Part shown: positions 13,071-33,229 of the stretch, piece after piece
How positions within the stretch are numbered: position 1 is the first letter of the stretch
Layout of the letters: the number at the start of each line of letters is the position of its first letter
Assembly (NCBI GenBank): GCA_964393205.1
Contig: CAYMSV010000002.1
Coordinates: 226,767 to 290,766, forward strand
DNA: 64,000 nucleotides
Reading direction: 5' to 3'
Source of the DNA: an uncultured Pseudomonadales bacterium
Lineage (GTDB): Bacteria > Patescibacteriota > Microgenomatia > UBA1400 > PJMF01
Translations under genes and position numbers: made by a program
The notes under the pieces: model-generated
Databases searched by the model: none
What the model was told of the DNA's origin: nothing
Seen by the model: only the letters and a program-made list of their open reading frames with translations

Positions 13071-15136
13071 TTAAGAGCTTCTTCTTCAGAAGTTAATCTA
13101 TTTTCGCGCAATAAATTTGAGGTTTCTTGTTCGTTGAGTAGGTTGGTGAGGCTAGAATCTTCTGTTGCTTCTAATAGTGGTTCTGTTCCTGGATCAATTA
13201 TTTCAGGTTCTAAATTCAAAACTTGAGATTCAGCTTGTGTTTCAGCTTGAGTTCGTAATTGATCAGCTTGTTCACTGACTGCAGCTAATTCTTTTTCAAC
13301 TATAGTGTAATCTTCTAAATCAGTTTCCGGATTGATAAGGGCGAGGGCTTGTTGTAGAGCATTTTCTGCCTCTAAAATTTGTCCACCTTGGATGTAAGCT
13401 TGAGCTAGATTGTAGTAGGCAACAGCTAAATCTGGTTTTCGCTCAATTGCTTGAATAAAGAAGTTGCTTGCTTGTTCCCATTGCTCAAGTCTCATAAGCA
13501 ATAATCCGAGATTCATTCTAACTAAAGGATCATTGGGACTTGTTAAAACAGCTTGAGACAAAGATTCGAAAGCCAACTGGCCAGCATCTTCGGTGACTTC
13601 TAGAAGTTGTAAATATACGTTAGTTAACACCAACCAGTTTTGATAAAATTTTGGTTGTAAAATTGTTGCTGCCCTAGCTTCGGTAATAGCAACATTAATT
13701 AGTTCTAGTACTTGCTCTTGATCTACTGGAGTAATATCTGTTTTGTTTGATAGAGCTATTGCCAACTCTAGAGAGGTAGTTGCATAATTTCTTCGCCAAA
13801 TTGCTGAGCGGTTAGCTAAATTTCGTGCCTGTTCTTGTTTAACAAAAGCAAGGTTAAAATCTTCTTTGCTTACAGCTACTGTAGCTTGATAAGTGGCAAC
13901 ATGAGCTGCATAATTTAAGATAAGTTGATAGGCTAGAAAAATCACTCCCGTCATAAACAAAAGTGAAATTGTAGTGAAAGTATAGCGATTAGCCTTGTTA
14001 TTAGGCTGCAGATTAAAGGGATCAAAAAGATTATTGAAGGAAAATTTTTTAATTTTATAGTTGTCTAAATTAGCTGCTAGATAGAAGCTGGTTACTAAAG
14101 CTAATAGCCCTAACATTAATATATTAAGAGGTAAAATTATTTGCCAGATAATTGCTGTAATAATAAAATATTTAAGCACCTGGGCTCTTTGGGTTTTTTT
14201 AATATTTACTAAAGTTATTGTTCTAGATATGAAAAACAACCAACTCAAAAACGCCAATAAACCCCCACTTACAATTAAAGTTAGAGGAAAAGCAGTGGCG
14301 CTTTCAAAACTAAATTGCCAAAACTCAGAAGTATTAAGCCAAGCCGGCTTAAGTAAATGAAAAGCTTGTCCGTAGCTATTTGGGCCAAAACCAAATAAGG
14401 CAGTACGACTAACTGCTAAACTTTCTCTAGCAATAGCTATGCTGGCTGGAAGTGGCAACAATATTGGACTAGTTTCTTGGCTGGGTAGAGCGGCATATAT
14501 ATTAATGCCCAAACCAACAACTAAGGTAGCAATGATTATTTTTTGCAAAATGTTTGATCTTTGACTTTTAGATAAAATATTGGTCACTATTAGGGCAGAG
14601 AGTAGTTGAATGTTTAATAAAACTCCGCCACTTAGGCTAAAAGAGAGGTTGTTGGGAAATTCAAAAACACTTAGTTGATTGAAAATTTGATTAAAACCAA
14701 AACCAAATAGTTGTAATATTGAACCAAAAACAATAATCAATCCAGCAACATTAAGAACCTGTATTAGTTTTTGACTATGATCTTTTTTAATTAGGGTTGG
14801 CGCGAAAATGATGATAGTTGCGAAGCTTAAGAAAAAACCACCCCAACCAACCAGTTGATCAAAGGGATATTGATGAGTAACTAAGCTGCTTAGTAAGATA
14901 CTTCCAGCAAAGAGAACGAGAGGTAACACTAGGGGATTGGAACTAATTAGCCATTTTTTCTCTTTAAAACTCTGAACGATGTAAGTGACCAGAGTACCTA
15001 AAGCTAAGAAAAATAACAGTATGCCTTTGGTGCTAACAAAAGGGTTATTAATGGAGGGAATCAATAAAACAGGTAATAAAAATGCTAAGATTAGAGCGAA
15101 CAAGGTAAAGGCGTTTGTCTTATTGTTTTTGAACAT
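13067..15136 (-). CDS. Polytopic membrane protein of the O-antigen ligase/polymerase (Wzy_C) family fused to C-terminal TPR repeats
   Basis: About 10 or more predicted TM segments. Periplasmic-loop motif LFGFGPNSYGQAF of the kind seen in WaaL/PglL/Wzy_C proteins. The C-terminal ~250 aa form TPR repeats (AYYNLAQAYIQGGQILEAENALQQAL...). Confidence 0.55.
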   Translation of the reverse strand: MFKNNKTNAFTLFALILAFLLPVLLIPSINNPFVSTKGILLFFLALGTLVTYIVQSFKEKKWLISSNPLVLPLVLFAGSILLSSLVTHQYPFDQLVGWGGFFLSFATIIIFAPTLIKKDHSQKLIQVLNVAGLIIVFGSILQLFGFGFNQIFNQLSVFEFPNNLSFSLSGGVLLNIQLLSALIVTNILSKSQRSNILQKIIIATLVVGLGINIYAALPSQETSPILLPLPASIAIARESLAVSRTALFGFGPNSYGQAFHLLKPAWLNTSEFWQFSFESATAFPLTLIVSGGLLAFLSWLFFISRTITLVNIKKTQRAQVLKYFIITAIIWQIILPLNILMLGLLALVTSFYLAANLDNYKIKKFSFNNLFDPFNLQPNNKANRYTFTTISLLFMTGVIFLAYQLILNYAAHVATYQATVAVSKEDFNLAFVKQEQARNLANRSAIWRRNYATTSLELAIALSNKTDITPVDQEQVLELINVAITEARAATILQPKFYQNWLVLTNVYLQLLEVTEDAGQLAFESLSQAVLTSPNDPLVRMNLGLLLMRLEQWEQASNFFIQAIERKPDLAVAYYNLAQAYIQGGQILEAENALQQALALINPETDLEDYTIVEKELAAVSEQADQLRTQAETQAESQVLNLEPEIIDPGTEPLLEATEDSSLTNLLNEQETSNLLRENRLTSEEEALN

Positions 15137-15202
15137 ATTTTCCAGGCTAGTTAATTGTTTTTTTTACTAGTTTATACTACACTAAATACACAAACAATTT
15201 CT

Positions 15203-15925
15203 ATGTTCAATATAGCGAAAAAAACTATTAAAGTGAAGCGGCAGTTGCTCGAAAAATCAGAGAAAAAAACTCAAAAAGCTGTTACTCTAGTAGAACTATT
15301 AATAGTGGTGGCTATTCTTTTATTGTTAATGGTGTCTCTTTATCGAACCATAGGTCGTGAAATAGATAAATCCAGAGATGCTAATCGCAAAAAAGATTTA
15401 AAAGAGATAAAAATTGCATTTGAAAATTATTATAATGACAATAGCTGTTATCCTCCGGATGATATTTTAGAAAACTGTGGAGGAGAAGAGTTAAGGCCTT
15501 ATTTATCAGAGATCCCCTGCGACCCCTTAGGTGTTCCTTATTTATATTTACCAATATCTGATATTTTTGCTAATAATAATTGTGGTGGCTATAGAGTGCT
15601 AACTCGCATAGGTATTATTAATGATCCTGATATAGAAGCAGTTGGTTGTCCAGAAGGTTGTGGAGGAATACCAGCGGGAATTTCTTCACCAGAAAGCTAT
15701 AATTATGGTATAGCTGAAGGAATAGCGCTTGATCAAACCCCGCCACCAGCAGAAACAATAGATCCTGCTCTATGTACACCTGATGAACATTGTTATTGTT
15801 GTCCTGGTCCAGGAAATCAGTGCAATTCTTGGTGGCCATCCTCAGGAGGAGTTTGTAGTGTTGGTGGGCCATACAGAACACTGAATGATTGTTATAATAG
15901 TACAGAGTGTACTCCGTTTTTTTAA
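15203..15925 (+). CDS. Type IV pilin-like protein (class III signal peptide, Ala at -1), Cys-rich C-terminal domain
   Basis: The ORF is open from 15155, but the ATG at 15203 avoids the divergent promoter region. Leader ...KKTQKA|VTLVELLIVVAILLLL has Glu at +5. The block SRDANRKKDLKEIKIAFENYYNDNSCYP is shared with the next two genes. There are 15 Cys in the C-terminal domain. Confidence 0.6.
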   Translation: MFNIAKKTIKVKRQLLEKSEKKTQKAVTLVELLIVVAILLLLMVSLYRTIGREIDKSRDANRKKDLKEIKIAFENYYNDNSCYPPDDILENCGGEELRPYLSEIPCDPLGVPYLYLPISDIFANNNCGGYRVLTRIGIINDPDIEAVGCPEGCGGIPAGISSPESYNYGIAEGIALDQTPPPAETIDPALCTPDEHCYCCPGPGNQCNSWWPSSGGVCSVGGPYRTLNDCYNSTECTPFF

Positions 15926-15938
15926 TTCTAAAATAATT

Positions 15939-16487
15939 ATGTTGACAAAAAATTTAAATAAACAACAAGCATCTTCAGGATTTACGCTATTAGAATTATT
16001 GGTAGTCATGATCATTTTAGCCTTGTTAGCAGGTATAGGACTAATGTCTTTTGGCACTGTACAACAAAAATCTAGAGATAGTGCTCGCAAGCAAGATTTA
16101 GCCAGTATCTCCAAAGCACTTGAGCTTTATCATAATGATTACGGATCTTATCCACTCTCTAGTTCCATAGATGGGCAAATTGAGGGTTGTGGAATGGATG
16201 CATTAGAAGCATGTGTATGGGGAGAGATTTGGTCAAATAGTTCTGACGACACCCTATACATGAACATGTTACCTAAAGATCCTTTAACAAATTGGAAATA
16301 TTATTATCGTCAAGAGAATAATGGTTATTATCTTTTTGCCCGTTTAGAAAATGAAGAGGATCCATCAATGGCACTCAGTGGTGGTAATCCAGCGTTTTAT
16401 GCAAACACCAATTGTAATGGAGAAAGTGATAGTTGCAATTATGTAATTAAGAGCAGTAATTTAAGTGAGGAGCCTACAATATTTTAA
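15939..16487 (+). CDS. Type IV pilin / pseudopilin (canonical G|FTLLE prepilin motif)
   Basis: The ORF is open from 15885, but that would overlap the previous gene, so the ATG at 15939 is preferred. Leader MLTKNLNKQQASSG|FTLLELLVVMIILALLAGIG. The shared block SRDSARKQDLASISKALELYHNDYGSYP. Confidence 0.7.
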   Translation: MLTKNLNKQQASSGFTLLELLVVMIILALLAGIGLMSFGTVQQKSRDSARKQDLASISKALELYHNDYGSYPLSSSIDGQIEGCGMDALEACVWGEIWSNSSDDTLYMNMLPKDPLTNWKYYYRQENNGYYLFARLENEEDPSMALSGGNPAFYANTNCNGESDSCNYVIKSSNLSEEPTIF

Positions 16488-16510: not shown

Positions 16511-16984
16511 ATGATAAAAATTAGCAAATTTGATCAAGAAAAAAAAGCTTTTACTCTTATAGAATTATTGATAGTTATCGCTGTTATAGGTGTTTTAATA
16601 GCAATAATTTTACCCAATTTAATTGGAATGCGTGAGCGAGCGAGAGACAGTAAGAGAAAAAATGATTTAGCACAACTAAAAACTGCTCTTAGGATGTATT
16701 TTAATGATTATAATAGTTACCCCCAGTCTTCTATTGATGAAAAAATTTGTTGCAGTGATCCCAGTACTTGTGATCAATGTATTGGCAGTACTTTTGAAGT
16801 AGCTGGTCAGACATATACCAAAGATTTATCTGATAACTACACCTATACGCCTCGAGATGCTGGACAAGGCTTTTTGTTAAGCACCACCTTAGAGAACGCT
16901 TCAGATAAAGACATAGCAGCTAGTGTTACTCGCTGTCAGGTTATTTCACCAATACCCAACTTCTTCTACGTGTGTGAAGATTAA
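16511..16984 (+). CDS. Type IV pilin-like protein (Ala at -1, FTLIE motif)
   Basis: Leader MIKISKFDQEKKA|FTLIELLIVIAVIGVLIAII. The shared block SKRKNDLAQLKTALRMYFNDYNSYP. Conserved Cys pairs (CCSDPSTCDQC). Confidence 0.7.
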   Translation: MIKISKFDQEKKAFTLIELLIVIAVIGVLIAIILPNLIGMRERARDSKRKNDLAQLKTALRMYFNDYNSYPQSSIDEKICCSDPSTCDQCIGSTFEVAGQTYTKDLSDNYTYTPRDAGQGFLLSTTLENASDKDIAASVTRCQVISPIPNFFYVCED

Positions 16985-17025: not shown

Positions 17026-18174
17026 TTAGAGATTTAGACCTTCAAGATTAATGCCTTGGAATTCCAAGCCACCACCTTCACCATCTTCTCCAATATTTAA
17101 GGCTGGTGTTTGACACCACTCTCCAGTTACCTGATTTTTAACAATGGCAATTTGATATTGATATTTATTGCCTGCAGTCGTTGAATCATCAGTATATTCG
17201 CGTAAAGACGAGGAGACATTGGTGTCTAAATCAGCAAATCCCGTGTCATTAACATTACGTTGAATAATGAATTTTTCTACGCCTGTTAGTTCTGTATCCC
17301 ACAAAATCAGTAATTCTGTATTCTCGGCATTTCTTTTTAACAAACAACTTGTCGGACGTTCTGGACCAAGATTAGCTGTAGCAAAACTTCCAGCGGTAGA
17401 CCAATTGCCTACGCCACCTTGATTATCAGAAAATCTAATTCTCCAATAATAAGTAGTGCCGTTAAAGGATAGGGCATTACCACCATAAGTTATGTTGGGA
17501 GATCTAGCACCAATAGCTGTATTGGTCATGGTTTGCAAGCCGCTATCCCACATGCTGGTGCCATCAAAATTTATTGATGTGTTGACTTGAACTTGATAAT
17601 AAGTGCCATAATCTCCTGTATTTGGATCTTGAAAAATTGCGCTAAAATAAGGACTAGTAGTTTCAATTTCGGTCGGGTTGGTTAATCCATTTGTCAATAA
17701 AGCTGTTGGAGTTGTGGGTGGAACGTTCATGCTAAATGAAGCAATGCTTGACCAAGCGCCTTCTGTATCTTCTCTGTCATAAAACCTAATCCGCCAATAA
17801 TAAGTACTACCATCTAAGGACAGGGTATTTCCAGCATAAGTTATATCTGGAGATCTAGCACCGATATTTGTATTGGTCATTGCGACTTTACCACTATCCC
17901 ACATACTGCCAGAAAGATCCGCTGTTTCAAAAACTTGTAATTGATAATGCATTCCATAATCATTTATATCTGGATCTTGAAAAATTGCGCTAAATTCTGG
18001 TGAAGTATCGGTAATGCCAGTAGGATTTGTCTGACCTTCACACAGAGGGGCGGTTGGAGCTGTTGGCGGCGTGCCATAAGAAGCATGAGCCGAGCTGGCC
18101 ATAGTTAAACAGGCTAAAGTTATTACAACTAAATAAAAAATTTTTAAGGTTTTTTTGTTTTTTTGTTTGATCAT
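17026..18174 (-). CDS. Secreted protein with two tandem ~115-aa FN3-like repeats
   Basis: Signal peptide (ITLACLTMASSAHA). Two paralogous modules, each ending ...GSTYYWRIRFYD / GTTYYWRIRFSD with shared SAIFQDP..DYG.YYQ.QV...SMWDSG...MTNT.IGARSP.ITY.GN.LS. Confidence 0.5.
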   Translation of the reverse strand: MIKQKNKKTLKIFYLVVITLACLTMASSAHASYGTPPTAPTAPLCEGQTNPTGITDTSPEFSAIFQDPDINDYGMHYQLQVFETADLSGSMWDSGKVAMTNTNIGARSPDITYAGNTLSLDGSTYYWRIRFYDREDTEGAWSSIASFSMNVPPTTPTALLTNGLTNPTEIETTSPYFSAIFQDPNTGDYGTYYQVQVNTSINFDGTSMWDSGLQTMTNTAIGARSPNITYGGNALSFNGTTYYWRIRFSDNQGGVGNWSTAGSFATANLGPERPTSCLLKRNAENTELLILWDTELTGVEKFIIQRNVNDTGFADLDTNVSSSLREYTDDSTTAGNKYQYQIAIVKNQVTGEWCQTPALNIGEDGEGGGLEFQGINLEGLNL

Positions 18175-18175
18175 T

Positions 18176-18844
18176 CTATCTTTTTATAAATTTTTGTTTT
18201 ATTTCTTTTACCTTATCAACTACTTTTTTATTTTTGCTGAGGATAATCCCACTTATTATTAGACCTACAAGAACGACAACTACAATTAGATATGTCATTA
18301 ATTGTTTAGTTCCAATATTGCTGAGCCAATTAGTTTGAGTAGCAAATAGTTTATTGTTTTCATCTTCTGCTTCAATTTCCTCAAGTCCATCTCCTAAAGA
18401 TATTGTGCTTAAAGTCACTTCTTCTTCACCTTCTTCTGATAGGCTAGAAAAATTCTCACTTTTGTCTAATTTGGCCTGAATATCATAGAAACCATCTTCT
18501 AGATTTAAAACGCTAAAGAGAACAAACCAGTTTCCATATTGATCAACGGTTGTTTCTAATTGTCTTTCTCCAAAAATGATAGTAATTTTAGCTCCTGGTT
18601 GGGCCTGACCGGCTATTTTAACCGCATCGCCTTCGGAAACACGCACTCTATCTGATTGGTTTTTATCTACAACCTCATTATTAATGGCAACATAATCTAG
18701 TACTGGTGTCGATTTTTGATTATTTTGACTAACGGACAGAGTGTTGGCCTCTAATTTATTTGGGTAGGAGAAAATAAGTCCAAGTGCAATAAGAGTGGCG
18801 ATGTTTATGAAGAGCTTTGTTTTGTTTGGATGGAATTTAGACAT
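18176..18844 (-). CDS. Hypothetical cell-surface protein, N-terminal signal plus C-terminal TM anchor with K-rich tail
   Basis: N-terminal hydrophobic segment. An acidic stretch (SEEGEEEV...EIEAEDENN). C-terminal TM LMTYLIVVVVLVGLIISGIIL, then KNKKVVDKVKEIKQKFIKR. Lies 1 nt upstream of the FN3-repeat gene on the minus strand. Confidence 0.45.
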   Translation of the reverse strand: MSKFHPNKTKLFINIATLIALGLIFSYPNKLEANTLSVSQNNQKSTPVLDYVAINNEVVDKNQSDRVRVSEGDAVKIAGQAQPGAKITIIFGERQLETTVDQYGNWFVLFSVLNLEDGFYDIQAKLDKSENFSSLSEEGEEEVTLSTISLGDGLEEIEAEDENNKLFATQTNWLSNIGTKQLMTYLIVVVVLVGLIISGIILSKNKKVVDKVKEIKQKFIKR

Positions 18845-18954: not shown

Positions 18955-21900
18955 CTAGTTGACAATCCACCAGTTAAATTGAACATCCTTATTTAGAGCA
19001 AAATCAAAACCAGCAATAAATTCTGCTTCATTTTCAATAGTAAATGTGCTGTCTAGTAATTTGTTTTTAATATAAATAACTTGATTGTTGGTAGATGTAA
19101 GAGGTGTGATGTAAATCATGCTGTTTTCAGTAAGACGAGAAGTTTTAACTTTCACCTCAGTTTGACCTGCAAGAATGACTGCTTGTCCAGCACTGTTATT
19201 GTTGATATTTGCAGAAGCACTGGCATCAGCAGAAGCACTGGCATTGGCAGGCATCTGATCAATTTTTAGACCACCACGCAAGGTCAGATCTCCGCTGGCA
19301 GACATTGTTGCTATTGGTTCTCCTTTTTCATCTATAAACTCAAAATTATTTTGTCTAATCACTTCTTCGCCCATTTCGTTAGCGACAGCTTGAGCAAGCT
19401 GTATGCGAATATTTTCATCAGGGTTTTCGGCTCTAATGAGATTGGTGAGTAGAGTATCTTTGACTTTTAGCTCTTCAGCAACTTCTAAAGTACCAGCCAC
19501 TTTAAGATCACCACCAATGGTAATTAGACCACTTTCGTCTAGAACTAATAAGTCAGCCATTAAAGATAAGCGGCCTCTACCAGCTGGCTGAATGGATAAA
19601 TCATAATTTTCATTATTTTGGAAAGCTATATAGCCATCTCCCATAGTTAAACCCTCACCGACCAATAGGGTCTGCTTAACTGCCAGAGCTTCTTCAATTA
19701 AAGCACTACCATTAACTTCAAAATAACCATCAATATAAGCATTGTGTGCTGTGATAGTATCACTTATGAAGTTGTTTTCATCATTGTTTAAGTCAGTGTC
19801 ATTATTAGTGTTGTTTAGATCAATGTTGTTATCTTGAGCCACTTGTTCTAGGTATTCTTCAGTAGTAGTGTCATTATTCATCAATGAGGCAAGTAGAGTA
19901 GAGTCTGCTAGTTGCTTGGCAACCGCCGTTTCTAGTCTTTCCTGTAGGCCGTTGATGATGTTGGCATCAACACTATTGGTATAGAGATTGTCGGTAGTTA
20001 TGGACTGGGCATGAAGTTCTCCAGAAACAGAGGCAGTATTCATTCGAGCACTATTAATTTCTGCTTCTTCGGCTGTTAATTGATTTAATTGGCTAGAGCC
20101 TTCAACTGCAAGATTGCCAGCTAGTTGTGCATTACCTTGATTATCGATACTGGCTACATTTTCACCTAAATTATTTTCAATCAATAATTCAGCTAAAATA
20201 GTGGGTTGTTTTTCTGCAACACTTAAGTTGTTATTTGATGTAATTAGCTCATCATTATTGAGGGCTAGTTGAACAACGTCTTTGATATATTGATCGAGAG
20301 TCTGGCCACCAATTTCTATTTGCTCTGTCACAATTTTTTGAGCGTTGAGAAGACTGGTGTTAATGGCAGTTGCAATTGAGTTATTTAATTGAGTAATTCT
20401 TTGATTTGTTTTTTCAACGAAATCAATATACTTGAGATTTAATTCTTGTATCGCTTTTGTTAACAAAGCTGTGAGGTGGACATAGTTAACACTAATTAAT
20501 TTTCCCTCTAGATAGGTGGCAAACATTGGATTAATTTGTTCTATTTCTTCTGCAATAAAACCCAAATCTTTTCTACCATCTTCTCTCCAGATATATTCAC
20601 GAGGGGTGAGCTGCATCAGTGTGTCCAGTCCATCTCCTAGATCTTTGATATCTTCTTTTAAGTTTTGGGTAGACGCACATGGTCTAATAAATTGATATCC
20701 AGTATAAGTAGTACTTGCGCTATAACACAAAGTAGCTCCTCCGCCAGTAGTGTAGTTGTAATACAAGGCATTGTCGGCCATCACATTTGTTGAAGAATGT
20801 ACGCCGGTTAGAGGGGCAGTTTTACCAATTCCCAGGTTGCCATCTTTATCTAGTCTCATTTTTTCAGTTGGTGAGCCTCCGCTAGTGGTAGTGGTCCAAA
20901 ATAATAAATTACCTTCATTTGTGTTGGTGGTTTGTTTTCTAGCTGTTATATAAGCTAGTTCACCACCAGTGGCAGAAGAATCAGTAAATCTGATTTGTCC
21001 AATATCACTAGTTGTTGAAGTAGTTCTTGCTCCGATTAGGTGCAGAATGGCATCTTGTGCGCTGGTTGCGCTAGTTCTAATATAGAGCTCTGGTGTAGCG
21101 CTGGATACAACGTCTAGGGTGCCTGAGGTGCTGGTGTCGCCAATAGCTACGCTACCATCTGAAAGGATATGTAATGCATCACTGCCGCCAACTGAAAATC
21201 CAAGAGAGTCACTAGCGGGATTATACATACCAGTGTCACTATCCGTGCTAAAACTATAAGTAGGGGCCCCAGCACTACCGCTTGCACCAAGCAATTGAGC
21301 AAAATTAATTAAGCTACCACTATTTAGACTTACTTGATCACTGGCAGCAGCAATAGTAATGTCTCCAGAAGTATTAGAAATTACAGAACTTGTACCACCA
21401 ACGATTAAACCACCCCCTCCACCTCCACTCATAGGAAATTCAACTGTTCCATCATCTTTTAAGGTCATAACGACAGCATCGGCAGTTTCAGTCCAGGAAG
21501 CAGTTGATTTTAATACAATATCCAATTGTGTTCCTGGTCCAGAGCCACTAGAGCTATAGGAAAACACATTAAAATCAGCTACAGCAGGGAATAGTCCTGA
21601 AGTTGCACCTTTTCTAACTAAACGAAGTAGTGTTTCTGTAGTAGTACTGTTAGCATTAGCACCTATCAATCTTGCCGCAGGTGTATTGCCAATTAATTGA
21701 CTTGCATGGGGAGTTCCAATCTGCAATAGTGCCTCTGGTGCAGTAGTACCAATTCCCAGATTGCCACCGATTACTGCCAATCTAGCGGTGCCAGGAGTGT
21801 GAGAACCGATAGCGGCACTACCTGCAGTAGTCAATGAAACTCCAGAAGAAGCTGGATCTAAAAAATAAGCATTGTTGCTATAGTCCATGACTTTTTCAAC

Positions 21901-24900
21901 AATAGCTGAACCGTCAACCACGAGTTTTTCACCAGGATTAGTGACACCAATGCCAACATTTCCATCTGCTCTTATTCTCATTTTTTCGGTTGGCGCTGCA
22001 TTATCGGTAGAGGTTAAAAAAGCTAGTGCTCCTTTGTAAGAAGTGCTGCCAATGTCTGTAATTAAACCTCTAATCTGTGCTACTTCTGTTATTCCTCCCG
22101 TAGTTCTGTTTAGGGCAAAACCGATTTGGGCAATATTGTCAACGTGAGCAGCCGTGGTATTAGTAATTCTTTGAGCAGTAGTAGCTGTGCCAAAAGCTCC
22201 AACCACATCCAATTTAGCTCCTGGAGTTATTGTCCCAATTCCGACACTGCTCCCACCAACAAACAAAGCTTCATCGGTATTGTTAGTAATTCTGAAGGCT
22301 CCGCTAGTAAAATTCCAAGTAGTGTTGAAGGCATCCATAGTTAAGGTTTGATCACTAGTAGTTGGACTAACAATACTGTCCCATCTAACTGCTACGTCAC
22401 CTTGACTTGTCCAAGTTGGAGCACCAGCTCCTTGTGAGGTGAGTAATTGACCAGTATCTCCTGCAACAGTAAATGCATAAGCATCTCCAGTACCATAAGC
22501 AACTGTTCCAGCAGTGGGAGTGGCTGTGGAGTTAGTACCACCTCTTGCAATAGCAAGTAATCCTGTCCAACCTAGTGTCCAAGTTCTATCAGTAGTCAAA
22601 TCTTGAGCAACTCCTGAATTAGTTACCGTTACATTAGTATCTTGAGTAATAGTTAAAGATCGATCAGCTCTAACTGCTTCAGTTGCGACAGTGGCTTGAG
22701 ATCCTAAAATAATGTTATCTCCGTTAATAGTAGTATTGGTTCCCGATCTACCAAGAGTTAATCCTGATTGAGTGGTACCACCAATAGCTAGAGTACCAGC
22801 AGCTCTGGTATCTAGATTGCCTCCACCTTGAACTAAGATATCACCAACCACATCCAATTTAGTTCCTGGGGTAGAGGTGCCGATACCAACACTACCACTT
22901 GCATCAATCACAAATGGAGTAGTGTCAGTAGCACTGTCATCAACTCTAAAGGAAGCGGCATTACCCAAGTTTTTAACATAAAGGGGAATGGCTGTTGATG
23001 AAGCCAGAGTAGAAGCAGTTAGTATAGAAGCATCTCCAGTAGCAGTTGAAGCACTACTTTCTCCAAAAGTAAAAGCACTCTTACCGGCAGTAGTTAGTGC
23101 CCAGTTCCAAACTTGAGCAAGATCTCCACTAGCGATAGTGTTAGCAGCTGTAGCAGCAGTAATACCGGATAGTGGTACATTAGAAGCAGCTCCTGGAGCA
23201 GCCCACACTGGCACACCTCCACTCACAGTTAATACATGACCAGTATCACCAATAGTTCTTTTAGCTAGAGTGTTAGCTGCACTAGCATAAAGCATGTCAC
23301 CAGTTGCATAACTTATTTGATTAGTTCCTCCATAAGCTTCAGTAATGGTACTAGCATTCCAAGTACCACTAGTTAAAGTACCAACTGAAGTTAGAGATGA
23401 ATTAATGACCCCTGATCCAAGAGTAGTAGCATTGAGTACTGAAGTATCATTGATGTAATATTCGTTACCTAAACTTAAATTAGCACTACCAGCGACGTCG
23501 AGCATATGGCCTGGATTGATGTCGCCAATTCCTACTTTTCCTCCACCAACATAGAATGCTTCATTACTATTGTTAGTAATTCTGAAGGCTCCGCTAGTAA
23601 AATTCCAAGTAGTGTTGAAGGCATCCATAGTTAAGGTTTGATCACTAGTAGTTGGACTAACAATACTGTCCCATCTAACTGCTACGTCACCTTGACTTGT
23701 CCAAGTTGGAGCACCAGCTCCTTGTGAGGTGAGTAATTGACCAGTATCTCCTGCAACAGTAAATGCATAAGCATCTCCAGTACCATAAGCAACTGTTCCA
23801 GCAGTGGGAGTGGCTGTGGAGTTAGTACCACCTCTTGCAATAGCAAGTAATCCTGTCCAACCTAGTGTCCAAGTTCTATCAGTAGTCAAATCTTGAGCAA
23901 CTCCTGAATTAGTTACCGTTACATTAGTATCTTGAGTAATAGTTAAAGATCGATCAGCTCTAACTGCTTCAGTTGCGACAGTGGCTTGAGATCCTAAAAT
24001 AATGTTATCTCCGTTAATAGTAGTATTGGTTCCCGATCTACCAAGAGTTAATCCTGATTGAGTGGTACCACCAATAGCTAGAGTACCAGCAGCTCTGGTA
24101 TCTAGATTGCCTCCACCTTGAACTAAGATATCACCAACCACATCCAATTTAGTTCCTGGGGTAGAGGTGCCGATACCAACACTACCACTTGCATCAATCA
24201 CAAATGGAGTAGTGTCAGTAGCACTGTCATCAACTCTAAAGGAAGCGGCATTACCCAAGTTTTTAACATAAAGGGGAATGGCTGTTGATGAAGCCAGAGT
24301 AGAAGCAGTTAGTATAGAAGCATCTCCAGTAGCAGTTGAAGCACTACTTTCTCCAAAAGTAAAAGCACTCTTACCGGCAGTAGTTAGTGCCCAGTTCCAA
24401 ACTTGAGCAAGATCTCCACTAGCGATAGTGTTAGCAGCTGTAGCAGCAGTAATACCGGATAGTGGTACATTAGAAGCAGCTCCTGGAGCAGCCCACACTG
24501 GCACACCTCCACTCACAGTTAATACATGACCAGTATCACCAATAGTTCTTTTAGCTAGAGTGTTAGCTGCACTAGCATAAAGCATGTCACCAGTTGCATA
24601 ACTTATTTGATTAGTTCCTCCATAAGCTTCAGTAATGGTACTAGCATTCCAAGTACCACTAGTTAAAGTACCAACTGAAGTTAGAGATGAATTAATGACC
24701 CCTGATCCAAGAGTAGTAGCATTGAGTACTGAAGTATCATTGATGTAATATTCGTTACCTAAACTTAAATTAGCACTACCAGCGACGTCGAGCATATGGC
24801 CTGGATCTGTATCACCAATACCGACTCGACCGGTACTAGCTTTTATAGTTAATCTGTCGGCATTATTGGTTCTGAGCCAGAAATCGTGATTGGTCATTGA

Positions 24901-26499
24901 TCCAGCAAAAGCGCCACCAGCCGCACCAGTGCCCATAATAAACTCAATATCATTAGTTACATCTCTACCCAAGAAGTAGGCTTTTCCATCGCCCTGAACC
25001 GCTACAGCAGCATTTTGTGATGAGTCAATGACAGCCGATGATTCAGGAGTGATGCCGGTTTGAGCAAATAAGGCTAACCAATTGGTGCCAGCTGCTGAAC
25101 CACTGGTGTGTAGGCTAGCAATTGGATCAGTAGTGCCAATTCCTACATTACCAACTCCATCTGGAGCTAAAACAATATCTCCATCACTGCCACTTTGGGT
25201 TTGAATCATGATCGAATCGGCCTCCAACATTAAGCTACTGCCAGTAGCAGTTTTAATTTCAGGATCATCAGTACCAAGCACCAATTCTCCTTGGTCATTT
25301 AGCATTAACAAAGTGCTATGAGTAGCAATTAAGCTAGGACGAATGCCCTGTACGGTTTCAGAGTTAATGGCGTAGGCTACAGTGCGAATTGGTTGGCGTG
25401 GTGTAAGGGTTTCAGTGCTTGGCGCTGTACCAACCGTAACTTCTAGCCAAACATTGCTATTCTCAGTAAATACACTGTCATCGATAGTTCCACCACAATC
25501 ATGATCGTCGCTACCAGCGCCACTACCAGCTCCAAGATTAGTGCTAAAAATACCGTCTTGATCTGGGGTAATAGCACAAGTATTAGATGACCAGAGCAGA
25601 TTGCCTGAAGTAACATCATCATAGAGCTCAAAAGTGACATCTGTTTCCGCAGCAATGGGAGTGCGGGCGGTATTGGTCAAGCGTCCCTGGAAAGAGAGAA
25701 TCCGATTTGGACTGGTAGGTAGGCTCGGATAAGCAAGTGACAAGACCGCTTGACCGAATTGTTGATAGGCTAGATAGCCTAAGCCGCCAATAAAAAATAA
25801 TAATGCAATAACATTAAGCGCAATAGCTAGTTTATTTGCTCGTTTACGACTTATCTTACTAGCTTGACTAACCTTGCCAAATAAGTTTCGTCTTTTCTTT
25901 GTTCCTTGTTCTTGAGTAAATTTCGCTAAAGTTTCGTCATCACTACTGAGGTTTTGAGTTTGTTGATTTTCGAATTGATCTGTTTGATTTTGAGGGCTAA
26001 TGGCTCTCCTCAAATCAATGTTTTTTGAATCTTTAGTATCAGAGTTATCTTTTTTAGGAGCAAGGGGAATTTCTGACTTGAGTAGGCCCTCTTTTTTTAA
26101 CCAATTTTTAAACTGGCTAACACTGACAATTTTACGCTTAATTGAACTATCTTTTAAACCCTTTTCTCTCTGGTACTTAGCAAAAGCTAAGAGTTTGGGT
26201 TTGCTTCCCAAACCATCTAAATTTTTTTCACCTAGAAAATCTAAAAATTGCTTGATGTCACTTTTGTAATTGCGAATTGTGGTTTTTGAGCGACCGCTCT
26301 TCTTGACTGCCAATAGGTAGTTATTTAGATTTTTTTCGATCTCTTTTGCTACGTTAAGACTATCGTTAGTGCTTTGTTCTTGTTTTTTAGTTTGGCCAAC
26401 TGCTTGATTTTGCAATAACTGCAAGAACTGTTGCTCACCGCTCAGTTTTTTTGCTTCTTTACTGTTTTGCTTGGTAATTTTGTTTATTTTGGCAGGCAT
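18955..26499 (-). CDS. Giant (2514 aa) membrane-anchored surface protein: N-terminal phage-integrase SAM-like (core-binding-like) domain, single TM, tail-fibre-like VGIGT repeats with a 430-aa exact duplication, internal S74-type intramolecular-chaperone-like motif, C-terminal coiled-coil/beta region
   Basis: Residues ~55-140 (YLLAVKKSGRSKTTIRNYKSDIKQFLDFL...SSIKRKIVSVSQFKNWLKKEGLL) resemble the XerD/phage-integrase N-terminal SAM-like domain. TM LAIALNVIALLFFIGGLGYLAY at ~aa 222-246. The extracellular part carries many (V/N)(G/S)IGTxxP motifs. A SxxNLKEDI...L(T/R)P..Y.W.....GFIAEE...I.P segment encoded at ~20560-20690 resembles the Peptidase_S74 autoprocessing module. One continuous ORF. Confidence 0.65.
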   Translation of the reverse strand: MPAKINKITKQNSKEAKKLSGEQQFLQLLQNQAVGQTKKQEQSTNDSLNVAKEIEKNLNNYLLAVKKSGRSKTTIRNYKSDIKQFLDFLGEKNLDGLGSKPKLLAFAKYQREKGLKDSSIKRKIVSVSQFKNWLKKEGLLKSEIPLAPKKDNSDTKDSKNIDLRRAISPQNQTDQFENQQTQNLSSDDETLAKFTQEQGTKKRRNLFGKVSQASKISRKRANKLAIALNVIALLFFIGGLGYLAYQQFGQAVLSLAYPSLPTSPNRILSFQGRLTNTARTPIAAETDVTFELYDDVTSGNLLWSSNTCAITPDQDGIFSTNLGAGSGAGSDDHDCGGTIDDSVFTENSNVWLEVTVGTAPSTETLTPRQPIRTVAYAINSETVQGIRPSLIATHSTLLMLNDQGELVLGTDDPEIKTATGSSLMLEADSIMIQTQSGSDGDIVLAPDGVGNVGIGTTDPIASLHTSGSAAGTNWLALFAQTGITPESSAVIDSSQNAAVAVQGDGKAYFLGRDVTNDIEFIMGTGAAGGAFAGSMTNHDFWLRTNNADRLTIKASTGRVGIGDTDPGHMLDVAGSANLSLGNEYYINDTSVLNATTLGSGVINSSLTSVGTLTSGTWNASTITEAYGGTNQISYATGDMLYASAANTLAKRTIGDTGHVLTVSGGVPVWAAPGAASNVPLSGITAATAANTIASGDLAQVWNWALTTAGKSAFTFGESSASTATGDASILTASTLASSTAIPLYVKNLGNAASFRVDDSATDTTPFVIDASGSVGIGTSTPGTKLDVVGDILVQGGGNLDTRAAGTLAIGGTTQSGLTLGRSGTNTTINGDNIILGSQATVATEAVRADRSLTITQDTNVTVTNSGVAQDLTTDRTWTLGWTGLLAIARGGTNSTATPTAGTVAYGTGDAYAFTVAGDTGQLLTSQGAGAPTWTSQGDVAVRWDSIVSPTTSDQTLTMDAFNTTWNFTSGAFRITNNSNEAFYVGGGKVGIGDINPGHMLDVAGSANLSLGNEYYINDTSVLNATTLGSGVINSSLTSVGTLTSGTWNASTITEAYGGTNQISYATGDMLYASAANTLAKRTIGDTGHVLTVSGGVPVWAAPGAASNVPLSGITAATAANTIASGDLAQVWNWALTTAGKSAFTFGESSASTATGDASILTASTLASSTAIPLYVKNLGNAASFRVDDSATDTTPFVIDASGSVGIGTSTPGTKLDVVGDILVQGGGNLDTRAAGTLAIGGTTQSGLTLGRSGTNTTINGDNIILGSQATVATEAVRADRSLTITQDTNVTVTNSGVAQDLTTDRTWTLGWTGLLAIARGGTNSTATPTAGTVAYGTGDAYAFTVAGDTGQLLTSQGAGAPTWTSQGDVAVRWDSIVSPTTSDQTLTMDAFNTTWNFTSGAFRITNNTDEALFVGGSSVGIGTITPGAKLDVVGAFGTATTAQRITNTTAAHVDNIAQIGFALNRTTGGITEVAQIRGLITDIGSTSYKGALAFLTSTDNAAPTEKMRIRADGNVGIGVTNPGEKLVVDGSAIVEKVMDYSNNAYFLDPASSGVSLTTAGSAAIGSHTPGTARLAVIGGNLGIGTTAPEALLQIGTPHASQLIGNTPAARLIGANANSTTTETLLRLVRKGATSGLFPAVADFNVFSYSSSGSGPGTQLDIVLKSTASWTETADAVVMTLKDDGTVEFPMSGGGGGGLIVGGTSSVISNTSGDITIAAASDQVSLNSGSLINFAQLLGASGSAGAPTYSFSTDSDTGMYNPASDSLGFSVGGSDALHILSDGSVAIGDTSTSGTLDVVSSATPELYIRTSATSAQDAILHLIGARTTSTTSDIGQIRFTDSSATGGELAYITARKQTTNTNEGNLLFWTTTTSGGSPTEKMRLDKDGNLGIGKTAPLTGVHSSTNVMADNALYYNYTTGGGATLCYSASTTYTGYQFIRPCASTQNLKEDIKDLGDGLDTLMQLTPREYIWREDGRKDLGFIAEEIEQINPMFATYLEGKLISVNYVHLTALLTKAIQELNLKYIDFVEKTNQRITQLNNSIATAINTSLLNAQKIVTEQIEIGGQTLDQYIKDVVQLALNNDELITSNNNLSVAEKQPTILAELLIENNLGENVASIDNQGNAQLAGNLAVEGSSQLNQLTAEEAEINSARMNTASVSGELHAQSITTDNLYTNSVDANIINGLQERLETAVAKQLADSTLLASLMNNDTTTEEYLEQVAQDNNIDLNNTNNDTDLNNDENNFISDTITAHNAYIDGYFEVNGSALIEEALAVKQTLLVGEGLTMGDGYIAFQNNENYDLSIQPAGRGRLSLMADLLVLDESGLITIGGDLKVAGTLEVAEELKVKDTLLTNLIRAENPDENIRIQLAQAVANEMGEEVIRQNNFEFIDEKGEPIATMSASGDLTLRGGLKIDQMPANASASADASASANINNNSAGQAVILAGQTEVKVKTSRLTENSMIYITPLTSTNNQVIYIKNKLLDSTFTIENEAEFIAGFDFALNKDVQFNWWIVN
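22278..24806. repeat. Perfect tandem direct duplication, two copies of ~1239 bp identical sequence, period 1290 bp (copy 1 ~22278-23516, copy 2 ~23568-24806), inside the giant CDS
   Basis: Aligned by eye at several sampled positions along the unit, with no mismatches seen where compared. For example tgttagtaattctgaaggctccgctagtaaaattccaagt occurs at 22281 and 23571, and agcgacgtcgagcatatggcctggat at 23491 and 24781. The ~51-bp junctions differ. Each copy encodes 430 aa (VGIGD(T/I)(D/N)PGHMLDVAGSANLSLGNEYY ... SGAFRITNN). Confidence 0.9.
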
Positions 26500-26992
26500 T
26501 AGTTTTTAGCTTTTTTTTGGCTGTCTAATCCAGAGGAGTTAGACAGGGATTTAGCTTCGGTTTTTTAAACTTTTTCCAGTCTAGAGAATTTATAGAGGCG
26601 AAACAAGTAGGGTTTTTTATTCGGGTTTTGGTCAGTTCAGTTAAATATTCACTCCAGAGGTGAGTACTATATATATTGCAAAGTAGTTTCACTCATTTTC
26701 ATGACAATCAAACTTATCTTAAAGAGATCAAAAAATATCATCAGTAAAAAAGTTATTCTTGGTTTTCCGCAAAGTCTTTCACAAAATTGCTAGTTGTGAA
26801 TTTACTCAAAAGTGTTGTACTATGTGAAGTAATATCTAAATATATGCTTTTTATCTGGGTCGTCTACTTGAGTAAAAAGTTTTTTTAATAAGCTCTTTAA
26901 GTCTAAAAACTAGCCTTCGGGTTTAAAATAATGGGGAAAACTCAAATACTGTTATTTTGGGACTAATTTATATTATTGAATTTATTACAACA

Positions 26993-27757
26993 ATGAAGAA
27001 AAATACTCGAAAAATACTCTTGCTTTTATATCCAGCCGAAAATGATCTCCAGAATAATCCAGGCGAAAAACCAATGCTTAGTTTTAGGCAGCTTCGTTTC
27101 TTACTACCCGGATTATCTATGGCTGGTTTAAAGTCTTTATTATTTTATTTAGAGAAAAATGAATACTTATTTAAGCAACAGCTAAATGAAGAAGTTTTCT
27201 ATAGCTTGACAAACTATGGCAGTGACGAGCTGGAACGGCAATTTCCGGCTCTTTCTATTGCGCGTCGACAATGGAGTGGTCAATGGACAATGATTGTCTT
27301 TTTACAATCGATCAAATCTGATCAAAACTTTCGTTATCTAAGAACTTTTCTTTTAAAGAATGGTTGTCTTGCTTTGACGCGTGGAATTTTCCTTTTTCCT
27401 GGTCAATTAAGTGATCTGGTCTTAGCCGAGTTGAATAATCGCTACCGACAAGGGGTAATGGTCTATCAACTAGGAAATTGCATAATTGGAGAAGAACGCA
27501 TTATTATAGGACAAAAAATTTCATTAGCTGATAGTTTAAAAATTTACTCTAGTATTAGCAGAGAGTTGGACGAACTGATAGAGATTACATCGCCAATAAA
27601 AAAATTAAAAGATCAGCATAAATTGACTTTTTATTCGATTTTTGATCGGTTTGAAACTTTTTTGCTGGAAGACAGTGGTCTAATTAAGCACTACTATCCT
27701 CAAGTAGAAGGACCCCTATCTATACTAACTAAATTACAAAAAGTGTTGAAAATATAG
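26993..27757 (+). CDS. PaaX-like winged-helix transcriptional regulator (tentative)
   Basis: The ORF is open from TTG at 26957, but the ATG at 26993 (MKKNTRKILLLLYP...) is preferred. N-terminal wHTH-like region, then a WSGQWTMIVF and RYLRTFLLKNGCLALTRGIFLFPGQL pattern reminiscent of PaaX/PaaX_C proteins. Weak, recognition only. Confidence 0.35.
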   Translation: MKKNTRKILLLLYPAENDLQNNPGEKPMLSFRQLRFLLPGLSMAGLKSLLFYLEKNEYLFKQQLNEEVFYSLTNYGSDELERQFPALSIARRQWSGQWTMIVFLQSIKSDQNFRYLRTFLLKNGCLALTRGIFLFPGQLSDLVLAELNNRYRQGVMVYQLGNCIIGEERIIIGQKISLADSLKIYSSISRELDELIEITSPIKKLKDQHKLTFYSIFDRFETFLLEDSGLIKHYYPQVEGPLSILTKLQKVLKI

Positions 27758-30976: not shown

Positions 30977-31648
30977 TTGATGACAATTAAACATTTATCT
31001 AGGCGTCTTTTTCTACTCATTTTCCGTTTTTTACCATTTTGTTTGATAATTATAGCTCTCAGTCTGGCTTGGCCGGCTCTCGAATCCTTGCGAGCTTCAG
31101 CGGAGAGTTTAGAGTGTTATTGTCCTAGCTGCCCTGAAAACTTGCTACCAGAGTCAGGTTTGCAAAAACTAGGTCGAATCAAGGTTGAAATCGCTGGGGC
31201 AGTAAACAAGCCAGGAATTTATGAACTTGATTTAGGGCAAAGAAGAGCCGATTTATTAAAGTTAGCTGATGGTATAAATGCCGAGGCATCTCTAGTGTTT
31301 ATGGCCAAAACCTTCAATCTCAGCAGCATCTTAAATGATGGGGAAAAAATATACATTCCTTATGCTTGGGAGGAAGAATGGCAATTAGCGTCTCTAACAA
31401 ATCAGGGGGTCTCATTAGAAAAAACTGAAGCGCTAATCGGTCATAGCTCCTCTGAAAGTGCTAATTCTCAATTAATTTCAATTAATACGGCTAGTGCCAA
31501 AGAATTAGAAAATCTACCAGGAATTGGTGAAAAACGAGCCAGTGATATTGTTTCTAACCGCCCCTTTTCCAGTCTAAATGAACTAGTGAGCAAGGGTGCG
31601 GTTACTCAAACCATTTTTGATTCAATTAAAGAATTAATTACTTTGTGA
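30977..31648 (+). CDS. comEA: ComEA-family DNA-binding competence protein (TM anchor, SLBB-like domain, C-terminal tandem HhH)
   Basis: N-terminal TM. Its C-terminus INTASAKELENLPGIGEKRASDIVSNRPFSSLNELVSKGAVTQTIFDSIK is the canonical ComEA helix-hairpin-helix pair. Confidence 0.8.
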   Translation: MMTIKHLSRRLFLLIFRFLPFCLIIIALSLAWPALESLRASAESLECYCPSCPENLLPESGLQKLGRIKVEIAGAVNKPGIYELDLGQRRADLLKLADGINAEASLVFMAKTFNLSSILNDGEKIYIPYAWEEEWQLASLTNQGVSLEKTEALIGHSSSESANSQLISINTASAKELENLPGIGEKRASDIVSNRPFSSLNELVSKGAVTQTIFDSIKELITL

Positions 31649-31822
31649 GGAAAAGTAAGGAGGAAATAATTTAAAAGAATTTTGTGAAAGATTTAGCATA
31701 TTATTATAGGATTTTAGAGCTTTCAATAAAGTGCAAACTGCTTTAGCAAAGATTCTAATTGATTGCTAAAAAGTGACTACTTTTTTAGTTAATAGAGAGT
31801 AAACAAGGGAATAAAGCAACTT

Positions 31823-33229
31823 TTGACTTTAATATTACTTTTTAGATCAGTTGTTTGTATGACTTATAAGAGAATTAATAAAATAAAAAGAACGTTTTTG
31901 ATATTATTTACAATATTTATATTATTGCATAATTTTAAATTTATATTTTATACCCGAAACTGGCCATTTTTCTCGATTAGTACACACAAACAGGCTAATT
32001 TTTTCTTAAATAACTATAAAACCAAAAGAATAGCGAAAATAGCTATTTTAAATATCAAGAATTACTATAAAACCACTTATTTTTCTTGTCTTTTATCTCA
32101 AGTTGGGGACTATTACAAAAATATACAGACTAGATCATTTAGCAAGTCCAACGCTTACTTGTTAAAGATATTGAATAGCTTAAAAAGATTGTTAAAAGCG
32201 ACTAAAGGACTATTTGATTTAACATATATTTCGTTAAAGTATCGGTTTTTTAGGGTTAAAAATCAACTTTTAATTATGCGGGAAAAACTTGTCTGGTTAC
32301 TTGAGGGAAGTTTTTCCACTCGAGAAGCTACTCTGGGTAAAGCTTTTGTCTTTGCAGAGCTGTCTGGAGCCCCCGAGACTCTCTATCACTCTTTTAAAGT
32401 TATAGGGATATTGCATTTGATTGCTGCTTCTAGTGCCAATATACATTTAATTCTCTTCTTTTTAAAGCCCTTATTAGCTCTTCTTGAGGTTTGGAAAGGT
32501 CAAAAATTATTGTCTTTAGCAAGTTCGATAATTATTGCTATTTATTTTTGCTTGATAAATGGGCATTTTAATCTAGTTGATTCTAGTCCTTCAATTCTAC
32601 GCGCCTCATTATCATGTGTTCTAGCTGTTTTAGCTAATAGCTATTTCAATTTGTCAGTAAAGCGCCTTAATTTACTTATCTTAGTAGGAATATTATGCCT
32701 TTTTATCAATCCTTTTTATCTCCAAGCCTTGGGGTTTCAATTGAGTTTTTTGGCTACTTTCATTATTCTTTTTTATTGGCCATATATCAGAAAAAAGATT
32801 GCTAAATCAAACTTAATGCTTAGTATGACGGTACAATTTTTTCTATGGCCCTTGCTCATTTTCTATTTTTCTAATGTTAATTTGATTGCTATACCAGCCA
32901 ATGTTTTATTATCACCTCTGGTAGAATCATTAACTTTTGTTTATTTTATATTTATTAGTAGCAAAATCCTTGATTTTCACTTTTTAGCTGATTTTTGTAG
33001 TAATTTGATATATTTTGTTTGTAATATATTTTTTAAATTTTTAGATTTTTTAGAAAAAATGCCTGCTAAATCTATTGATATACATCAAAATAAAAGTCTG
33101 GTGATTGCTGTCTTAATTCTTATTCAAGTTTGTATTACTTATTTAATTTTGCGAGAAAAAAAACTATATTTTAAAAAAAATAAATATAGGATATTAACTA
33201 AGTGGGCTAATTACTTAGCAAAACAATGA
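31823..33229 (+). CDS. comEC: ComEC/Rec2 competence channel, membrane (competence) domain ORF
   Basis: Polytopic membrane protein with HLIAASSANIHLILFFL, similar to the ComEC HLLAISGLH motif. Ends in TGA overlapping the next ATG (caATGAaa). Confidence 0.7.
   Translation: MTLILLFRSVVCMTYKRINKIKRTFLILFTIFILLHNFKFIFYTRNWPFFSISTHKQANFFLNNYKTKRIAKIAILNIKNYYKTTYFSCLLSQVGDYYKNIQTRSFSKSNAYLLKILNSLKRLLKATKGLFDLTYISLKYRFFRVKNQLLIMREKLVWLLEGSFSTREATLGKAFVFAELSGAPETLYHSFKVIGILHLIAASSANIHLILFFLKPLLALLEVWKGQKLLSLASSIIIAIYFCLINGHFNLVDSSPSILRASLSCVLAVLANSYFNLSVKRLNLLILVGILCLFINPFYLQALGFQLSFLATFIILFYWPYIRKKIAKSNLMLSMTVQFFLWPLLIFYFSNVNLIAIPANVLLSPLVESLTFVYFIFISSKILDFHFLADFCSNLIYFVCNIFFKFLDFLEKMPAKSIDIHQNKSLVIAVLILIQVCITYLILREKKLYFKKNKYRILTKWANYLAKQ

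Follow-up and report, generated by a model that had tools for sequence, protein, structure and literature searches.

A membrane-anchored, tail-fibre-like protein family of Patescibacteria with a recombinase-type core-binding domain on its predicted cytoplasmic side

Why would a domain typical of tyrosine recombinases and a fibre resembling those of phage tails be joined in a single bacterial gene? The question is raised by an open reading frame (ORF) at 18955..26499 (-) of the stretch of DNA analysed here, a window of 64,000 nucleotides on contig CAYMSV010000002.1 (GenBank assembly GCA_964393205.1). A first-pass annotation, made from the sequence of this window alone, had described the ORF as a single uninterrupted reading frame of 2514 codons and had guessed that it belonged to a small-genome organism. 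Both statements hold: the organism is a Patescibacterium with a small genome, and the gene runs from an ATG start through 2514 codons to a stop, without an internal stop codon. The exact 2514-aa protein is also present in public collections, where it occurs on three contigs. We consider it probable (at roughly 0.6) that the gene encodes a membrane-anchored, trimeric host-recognition fibre resembling phage tail fibres and the mosaic adhesive trimer (MAT) proteins of Bdellovibrio, and that this member of the family cleaves itself at S1943.

The N-terminal ~220 residues had been read at first pass as a cytoplasmic region carrying the SAM-like N-domain of a tyrosine recombinase, with no catalytic recombinase domain, and both parts of that reading are confirmed. 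The SAM-like core-binding (CB) domain occupies aa 44-143 (26071..26370, (-)). Within it, the Pfam model Phage_int_SAM_1 matches aa 64-138 with 36.6 bits, above its curated gathering score of 22.3, and the NCBIfam models XerD, XerC and XerA align only over their first ~90 positions (~7-89 of ~290). No match to Phage_integrase, the recombinase catalytic domain with its R-K-H-R-H/W-Y active site, was found in the Pfam scan; lacking this domain, the protein cannot be a recombinase. In an AlphaFold2 (AF2) model of the N-terminal part, computed with a 20-sequence alignment, aa 44-136 form a helical bundle with predicted local distance difference test (pLDDT) values >90. The bundle is followed by a basic, predicted-disordered cytoplasmic linker at aa 144-217 (25849..26070, (-)), for which AF2 pLDDT falls <50. 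The net charge of aa 1-222 is +23, and the median for the cytoplasmic part across the family is +13. The best PDB sequence match of the CB profile was chain 9i5v_14, a 401-aa chain labelled 'RaiA' in a P. gingivalis ribosome entry, whose N-terminus resembles a XerC/XerD core-binding domain; the paper describing that entry is silent on the chain, and no inference is drawn from it here.

A single transmembrane (TM) helix separates this region from the rest of the protein, as the first-pass annotation had predicted. Its hydrophobic core lies at aa 223-246 (25762..25833, (-); Kyte-Doolittle 19-mer up to 2.19), in a hydrophobic segment spanning aa ~221-246 that carries a net charge of +9 in the preceding 23 residues and +2 after, and an AF2 helix at aa 218-249 spans the whole segment. 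To locate domains in relatives we used hidden Markov models (HMMs) built from our own family alignments; between their CB and beta domains, 243 of 250 relatives carry a hydrophobic 19-mer, and they have no other TM segment. Because the hydrophobic segment begins only at aa ~221, behind a basic folded domain, it is expected to be a signal-anchor, not a cleavable signal peptide. By the positive-inside rule, we infer an N-in, C-out (type II) topology, which would place the CB domain in the cytoplasm and everything beyond the helix outside.

Beyond the helix lies a conserved membrane-proximal beta domain at aa 255-386 (25342..25737, (-)), which includes an invariant LSFQGRLT and is the best-conserved part of family alignment A1. 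AF2 models a beta sandwich at aa 268-360 (pLDDT 82-91). The NCBIfam model NF053851, Bdello_MAT_N, matches aa 261-384 with 25-30.3 bits, below its cut-off of 60, and is matched at the same sub-threshold level by 17 of 20 family members (best E 3.2e-7). This suggests homology, at a sub-threshold level, between the membrane-proximal domain and the N-domain of Bdellovibrio MAT fibres. In the latter, a conserved ~130-aa beta-rich domain follows directly after the signal peptide, capping loops carry the motif V-G-G/N-pi-x-x-P-x-x-x-L, S74 and non-S74 subgroups occur, and self-cleavage at SDxxxK exposes the binding tip (PMC10769870).

The variable fibre region, aa 387-1942 (20674..25341, (-)), was described at first pass as extracellular repeats with a motif typical of tail fibres, and this description is upheld by a count. 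Nine VGIGxxxPxxxL capping-loop motifs are present: in the ectodomain, which is rich in Thr, Gly, Ala and Ser, the pattern [VLIA]G[IVLGNA][GSAN]x2-3Px3[LVIM] has 9 matches, whereas 1000 shuffled versions gave 0.16 on average. Matches to PHROG tail-fibre families cover aa 1720-1926, and the last ~220 aa of the fibre region resemble phage tail-fibre tips. These likenesses are probably best explained if phage tail fibres and Bdellovibrio MAT adhesins belong to the lineage from which the ectodomain arose.

At the end of the fibre region stands an S74 intramolecular-chaperone and autoprotease module, aa 1943-2050 (20350..20673, (-); S1943 codon at 20671-20673), at the place where an S74-type module had been predicted from the sequence. 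Pfam PF13884 (Peptidase_S74) matches aa 1945-1991 with 36.3 bits (gathering score 22). S1943 is the candidate nucleophile, with K1948 at +5; the family S74 alignment, A3, which holds 14 family sequences, shows no variation at the Ser, the Lys (+5) or the Gly of GFIAxE. A profile of A3 matches the solved S74 domains 6f45, 8jov, 7dc3 (MyRF), 8hqz (T5) and 3gud with E values from 1.5e-17 to 7e-5. These matched domains are cleavage-competent and come from phage fibres, T5 pb1, the GA-1 appendage and MyRF; the top Foldseek match of the S74 part is the MyRF ICA domain. Searches of PDB sequences by phmmer, using the full protein and the C-terminal 601 aa, returned nothing useful, and PDB sequence relatives were obtained with profiles instead.

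The module does not stand at the extreme C-terminus: from S1943 to the protein end there are 571 residues, and among solved examples MyRF alone has an internal S74. The first-pass annotation had noted the internal position and about 570 residues after it. That count is correct, but the residues are not a stray tail, for they include the conserved C-terminal module of the family, aa 2100-2514 (~415 aa; 18958..20202, (-); alignments A2 and A4). Such a module ends 95 of 144 family representatives, and the rest are mostly fragments cut at contig ends. S74 was found in 24 of the 144, and in 23 of these 24 it lies 50-250 aa ahead of the C-terminal module. Members that were S74-negative by our own HMM were negative with the Pfam model too, and positive controls were detected; S74 is thus an optional element of the family and the C-terminal module the constant one. 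The last ~80 aa match Pfam K1-lyase_C weakly (E=0.0013), and by Foldseek they match the C-terminal domains of K1 lyase, K64-1 S2-4 and the Pam1 tailspike (probability 1.0, E~0.02). As modelled, in the one confident part of an otherwise poor monomer model, these residues would resemble a tailspike-type C-terminal beta domain.

The arrangement found in this window recurs widely. When the first 386 aa were used as query, the matches were Patescibacteria proteins, mostly partial and often named "site-specific integrase, partial". A profile of the CB domain, TM helix and beta domain matched 752 cluster representatives (clustered at 50% identity) at E<=1e-30; nearly all of the top 150 matches span the whole N-terminal module, and lengths reach 7697 aa. 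A scan of one genome per species yielded 379 loci, essentially all in Patescibacteria, with record titles that name Paceibacterota, Pacebacteria, Woesebacteria, Microgenomates or "Patescibacteria group". The CB domain is kept across the whole family, and about half of the members have two CB domains in tandem. The family architecture is therefore one or two CB domains, a basic linker, a TM helix, a MAT-N-like beta domain, a variable fibre, an optional S74 and a C-terminal module of ~415 aa. Had the N-terminal part been a separate gene, or had the SAM-like and S74 profiles failed to match, the first-pass description would have fallen; instead, both families score above their curated cut-offs, and the fusion of N-domain and fibre recurs in ~250 relatives, which rules out a frameshift or an assembly artefact. 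Many third-party annotation (TPA) metagenome-assembled genomes among loci L001-L080 are clearly Patescibacteria yet are titled 'uncultured Pseudomonadales'. These records, and single loci titled TM6, Vitreimonas, Limisphaerales or Methylococcaceae, probably represent mislabelled or contaminated bins.

Upstream of the giant gene, and divergent from it, lies a gene for a putative regulator of 254 aa (26993..27757, (+)) with remote similarity to PaaX over most of its length. The similarity falls below every curated threshold, with 19.2 bits against Pfam PaaX_M (threshold 24; E=0.0013) and 18.9 bits against TIGR02277 (threshold 264.6; E=8.6e-4), and the PDB PaaX structure 8a39 is matched with E=0.4; we therefore label the protein PaaX-like only. 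In the list of ORFs its start is a TTG at 26957, and homologues of 254 aa favour the ATG at 26993. A PaaX-like gene is found upstream of the family member in 67 of the 77 loci with enough flank, always divergently oriented, and in 24 of these 67 loci leuS, which is a neighbour in the present window, is not nearby. Reverse look-ups starting from PaaX-like homologues led in three of three cases to a gene adjoining a family member.

Between the two genes, the non-coding leader of the giant gene (26500..26700, (-)) is itself conserved. Its mean column identity is 83% among six loci, which makes it more conserved than the flanking proteins, and invariant blocks extend across 16 loci. It includes the palindrome TGTCTAA-N10-TTAGACA (7-10-7) at 26522-26545, 24-45 nt before the ATG, which occurs once in the 64-kb window against 0.04 copies expected. 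In 1.28 Mb of related loci the palindrome occurs 29 times, almost always directly 5' of the start codon of a family member; for a few loci the start codon as estimated is a few hundred nt away. Of 80 loci, 68 have the sense-strand hexamer GTCTAA <=120 nt upstream of the start, with 85 copies against ~1.4 expected (background 0.017 per 126 nt), an enrichment of ~60-fold. A structured RNA was considered and rejected. The leader has no Rfam match at E<=1, no consensus structure and no covariation, and distant loci keep GTCTAAT while the 3' palindrome arm is lost, which favours a sequence motif over a hairpin. We read GTCTAA as a probable protein-binding or promoter motif; it may be a -10 element of the ECF type, but its spacing to candidate -35 elements, on inspection of alignment A6, is inconsistent between lineages. 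Core-binding domains bind inverted repeats, and both the PaaX-like protein and the CB domains of the fibre itself are candidate binders of the motif. For a core-binding domain acting as a regulator, FliZ provides a precedent (PMC3367168).

The proposal of a self-cleaving host-recognition fibre thus draws on domain matches above Pfam thresholds, a conserved TM helix with positive-inside charge, and a large family confined to Patescibacteria. It draws equally on the links to MATs (Bdello_MAT_N in 17 of 20 members, capping loops and S74 subgroups), on the invariant S74 residues and on the tailspike-like end, as well as on the variable centre, a housekeeping context without phage genes, and the conserved PaaX-like partner with its cis motif. 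On this proposal, the basic ~220-aa N-terminus would lie in the cytoplasm, the single helix would anchor the protein, and the MAT-N-like beta domain would form the fibre's base at the membrane or wall. By analogy with S74 and MAT biology, three chains would assemble into a beta-helical fibre with VGIGxxxPxxxL capping loops, with the S74 chaperone and the C-terminal module setting the register of folding from the C-terminal end. The S1943/K1948 dyad would then cut the chain, so that the 571-aa C-terminal trimer would be shed and a tip at aa ~1720-1942 exposed. The exposed fibre may bind a surface structure of the episymbiont's host bacterium, and its middle, which varies between relatives, may diversify by duplication and indels. 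Expression may be controlled through the conserved leader and the linked divergent PaaX-like regulator, and the cytoplasmic CB domain may bind DNA or a protein partner.

Four observations weigh against this proposal. The Bdello_MAT_N score of ~30 bits is well short of the cut-off of 60 bits, and the canonical SDxxxK of the cleavage site is STxxxK here (STQNLK), with Thr in place of Asp. AF2 modelled the last 594 aa (1921-2514) poorly as a monomer, at a mean pLDDT of 49, and only the S74 core and last ~80 aa of this model were used. Finally, a conserved C-terminal module behind a variable fibre is the reverse of the variable tips of MATs, and the module might therefore be the functional end of the protein rather than a shed chaperone.

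Comparison with characterised systems helps to separate what is familiar in this architecture from what is new. Like the MAT of B. bacteriovorus, the protein is cellular and non-viral yet resembles a tail fibre, and MATs are trimeric adhesins of a bacterium that lives on bacteria. The two share the capping-loop motif (nine copies here), S74-positive and S74-negative subgroups, and a mosaic, variable body, and they may also share a ~130-aa beta-rich domain after the export signal (here with an NF053851 match below cut-off). However, MATs have a cleavable signal peptide, whereas members of the present family have a cytoplasmic region of 150-450 aa, one or two CB domains and a TM anchor. In MATs S74 is terminal and tips vary, whereas here a conserved module of ~415 aa comes after S74 and closes nearly all complete members; the family's proteins are also 2 to 7 times longer. 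With phage fibres and tailspikes (endosialidase K1F, 3GW6; T5 pb1, 4UW8/8HQZ) the protein has in common the S74 Ser-Lys dyad, a tail-fibre-like segment just before it and a tailspike-type terminal beta domain. Unlike them, it is not part of a virion, has no phage genes nearby and carries an N-terminal cell-membrane anchor; its S74 is internal, and 571 aa would be released where phage fibres release ~110-150 aa.

The domain order recalls other single-pass proteins. MyRF (ICA domain 7DC3) likewise combines a DNA-binding-type domain, an internal S74/ICA and a long C-terminal region in a single-pass protein. In MyRF, however, both the DNA-binding domain and the ICA precede the TM helix and share one side of the membrane, and cleavage frees a transcription factor, whereas the order here is CB domain, TM helix, fibre and S74. 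Since the TM helix separates the CB domain from S74, cleavage at S74 cannot release the cytoplasmic domain. The CB domain has the four-helix core-binding fold and conserved sequence signature of XerC, XerD and integrases and of the non-catalytic proteins FliZ, MrpR and SroF. In contrast to FliZ and MrpR it is membrane-tethered and fused to a giant ectodomain, and the two tandem CB domains of many family members set them apart from tyrosine recombinases and CB regulators alike. The layout of ToxR and CadC, with a cytoplasmic DNA-binding-type domain (predicted here), one TM helix and an extracytoplasmic domain, is also shared, but those proteins have an OmpR-type winged helix in place of the core-binding fold and a small sensor domain in place of a fibre of >2000 aa. 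The first-pass annotation had not recognised the architecture as a described one, and in the open-access literature we found no published description of it in the candidate phyla radiation (CPR). That view needs qualifying in two respects: judged by its sequence, the ectodomain is of a known kind, that of the Bdellovibrio MAT and phage tail-fibre lineage, and the architecture belongs to a large family and not to this gene alone. What is new is the cytoplasmic CB domain, the anchor, the conserved C-terminal module, the partner gene and the leader motif.

The variability of the fibre is evident even among near-identical proteins. An exact internal direct repeat of 1239 nt is present in two copies, 22278..23516 and 23568..24806 (both (-)), which are 100% identical. 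The public protein P0098 (2084 aa) has a single copy and is otherwise identical to the 2514-aa protein, sharing with it an identical prefix of 977 aa and an identical suffix of 1519 aa; this 2084-aa form (two cluster members) occurs on two public contigs. The true protein length is either 2084 or 2514 aa, and the one- and two-copy forms represent either a strain polymorphism or a collapse or expansion in assembly; the domain architecture is unaffected by copy number. In the closest species-level relative, L001, the N-terminus is 87% and the C-terminus 89% identical, and aa 485-1328 are absent (an indel of ~840 aa). The central fibre of near-identical relatives thus differs both in repeat copy number and by a large indel.

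The genes that flank this locus are housekeeping genes, comprising leuS, comEA, a split comEC, an M16 peptidase, obg, rho, an M23/LysM peptidase, a second giant surface protein and an ABC transporter, and no phage genes were found among the annotated flanking genes. As noted at first pass, pilin genes lie close by, as does the PaaX-like regulator, and both prove to be recurrent neighbours. Three type IV pilin-like genes (15155-15925, 15885-16487 and 16511-16984, all (+)), with N_methyl and T2SSG matches, are convergent with the giant gene, and after them comes a gene for a 689-aa protein with C-terminal TPR repeats (13067-15136, (-)). This block of pilin-like and TPR genes lies 3' of the giant gene in nine loci (L001, L002, L007, L035, L038, L041, L048, L049 and L060) that span 30-95% identity. 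The conserved partners of the giant gene are thus the PaaX-like gene and, where the 3' flank is readable, the pilin-like genes. Immediately downstream, two co-directional genes (18176-18844 and 17026-18174, both (-)) encode secreted or anchored Ig-like proteins with signal peptides and Ig_Rha78A_N or Big-like domains. The first-pass annotation had placed them in an operon headed by the giant gene; homologues are found only in the two closest relatives, L001 and L002, and the arrangement is not conserved beyond them.

Elsewhere in the window, comEA (SLBB and HHH domains) and then the split comEC lie at 30977-34191 (+), adjoining leuS. comEC consists of a Competence-domain ORF (31823-33229) and an overlapping metallo-beta-lactamase ORF (33226-34191), and the split is also seen in related loci. 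A functional link between the fibre and DNA uptake through comEA/comEC was considered and set aside, as the genes co-occur in only 12-17 closely related loci, which probably reflects lineage synteny. The second giant ORF, 37106-44233 (+), encodes 2375 aa with Kelch/mutarotase-like repeats and a C-terminus that matches an anchor family of the MXAN_2561/MXYO-CTERM type; none of the modules of the fibre family was found in it. It is followed at 44236-48039 by genes for an ABC ATPase and a permease of the MacB/FtsX type. An Rfam L10_leader at 56351-56480 (-) (58 bits; gathering score 44) is an ordinary ribosomal-protein leader.

Other explanations of the giant gene must be weighed against a host-recognition fibre. 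One tentative alternative, to which we give modest weight, is a membrane-tethered signalling protein of the ToxR/CadC kind, in which the fibre would sense contact and the trimerised CB domains would bind GTCTAA in the leader, or DNA elsewhere; host contact would thereby be linked to transcription, or the nucleoid would be tethered. In favour of it are the good support for the core-binding fold, the strongly basic character of the cytoplasmic part, the retention and frequent duplication of the CB domain family-wide, and a family-specific motif of arm, spacer and arm (7-10-7) at 24-45 nt before the start codon. However, the PaaX-like protein is a simpler candidate binder of this motif, whose 3' arm is lost in distant members, and core-binding domains bind DNA weakly when isolated. 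In bitopic membrane proteins a DNA-binding fold can also serve protein contacts, as in RodZ, which binds MreB, and there is no evident mechanism by which a signal would pass along a fibre of >2000 aa. In its boldest form, which we hold doubtful, this idea would make the family a new class of contact-sensing, membrane-tethered DNA-binding proteins, with each trimer gathering three (or six) CB domains onto the GTCTAA repeats of the leader, with or against the PaaX-like protein. If it were true, an organism that has very few signalling systems of the conventional kind would reprogramme its transcription directly on attachment to a host.

It is unlikely, in our judgement, that the protein is a structural envelope component and not a host-specific adhesin, be it a spacer, an S-layer-associated or wall-spanning filament, or a partner of a type IV pilus-like system. 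Both ends of the protein are conserved, a pattern that fits structural docking, pilin-like genes are recurrent neighbours, and most members keep the C-terminal module without having S74; yet the centre is hypervariable in length and sequence even among close relatives, as is typical of recognition proteins, and the closest characterised relatives, phage fibres and MATs, are adhesins. A still more improbable role is that of a diffusible effector, with the S74 cut freeing the C-terminal 571 aa as a depolymerase or toxin-like trimer directed against host envelopes. An internal S74 with an intact Ser-Lys dyad and a terminal domain resembling that of capsule depolymerases would suit such a role, but Pfam searches detected no catalytic beta-helix or enzyme domain in the C-terminal module, which is conserved and looks structural. 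Moreover, about three quarters of the members that bear the module have no S74, so that the module stays attached in them, and no immunity-like gene lies nearby. Hardly any credibility is left to the idea of an artefact or of a prophage remnant, in which a frameshift or misassembly would have joined a truncated integrase gene to one for a phage tail fibre. It could appeal to the public annotation of relatives as 'site-specific integrase, partial' and to the exact internal repeat, which makes the region hard to assemble. Independent relatives, ~250 of them at 25-87% identity, nevertheless show the same fusion with the TM helix between its parts; the gene is flanked by housekeeping genes in conserved synteny, with no phage genes among them, and the exact protein occurs on several contigs. 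The prophage or misassembly explanation is effectively refuted by this family-wide conservation and context.

A host-recognition fibre would bear on a general question in the biology of these bacteria. The Patescibacteria (CPR) make up a large share of bacterial diversity, and most of them appear to be host-attached; to our knowledge, the mechanism by which a host is found and held is not known outside a few cultured Saccharibacteria. The fibre family, present in at least 379 species-level genomes, is a strong, widespread and syntenically fixed candidate for host recognition by host-dependent Patescibacteria, and its variable fibre or tip could serve as a probe for the hosts of uncultured lineages. 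In public databases, hundreds of entries named "site-specific integrase, partial" are mis-annotated fragments of proteins of this family. For a CB domain on a surface fibre we found no described precedent, and together with the partner gene and the cis motif it may offer a testable route for outside-in signalling in minimal cells.

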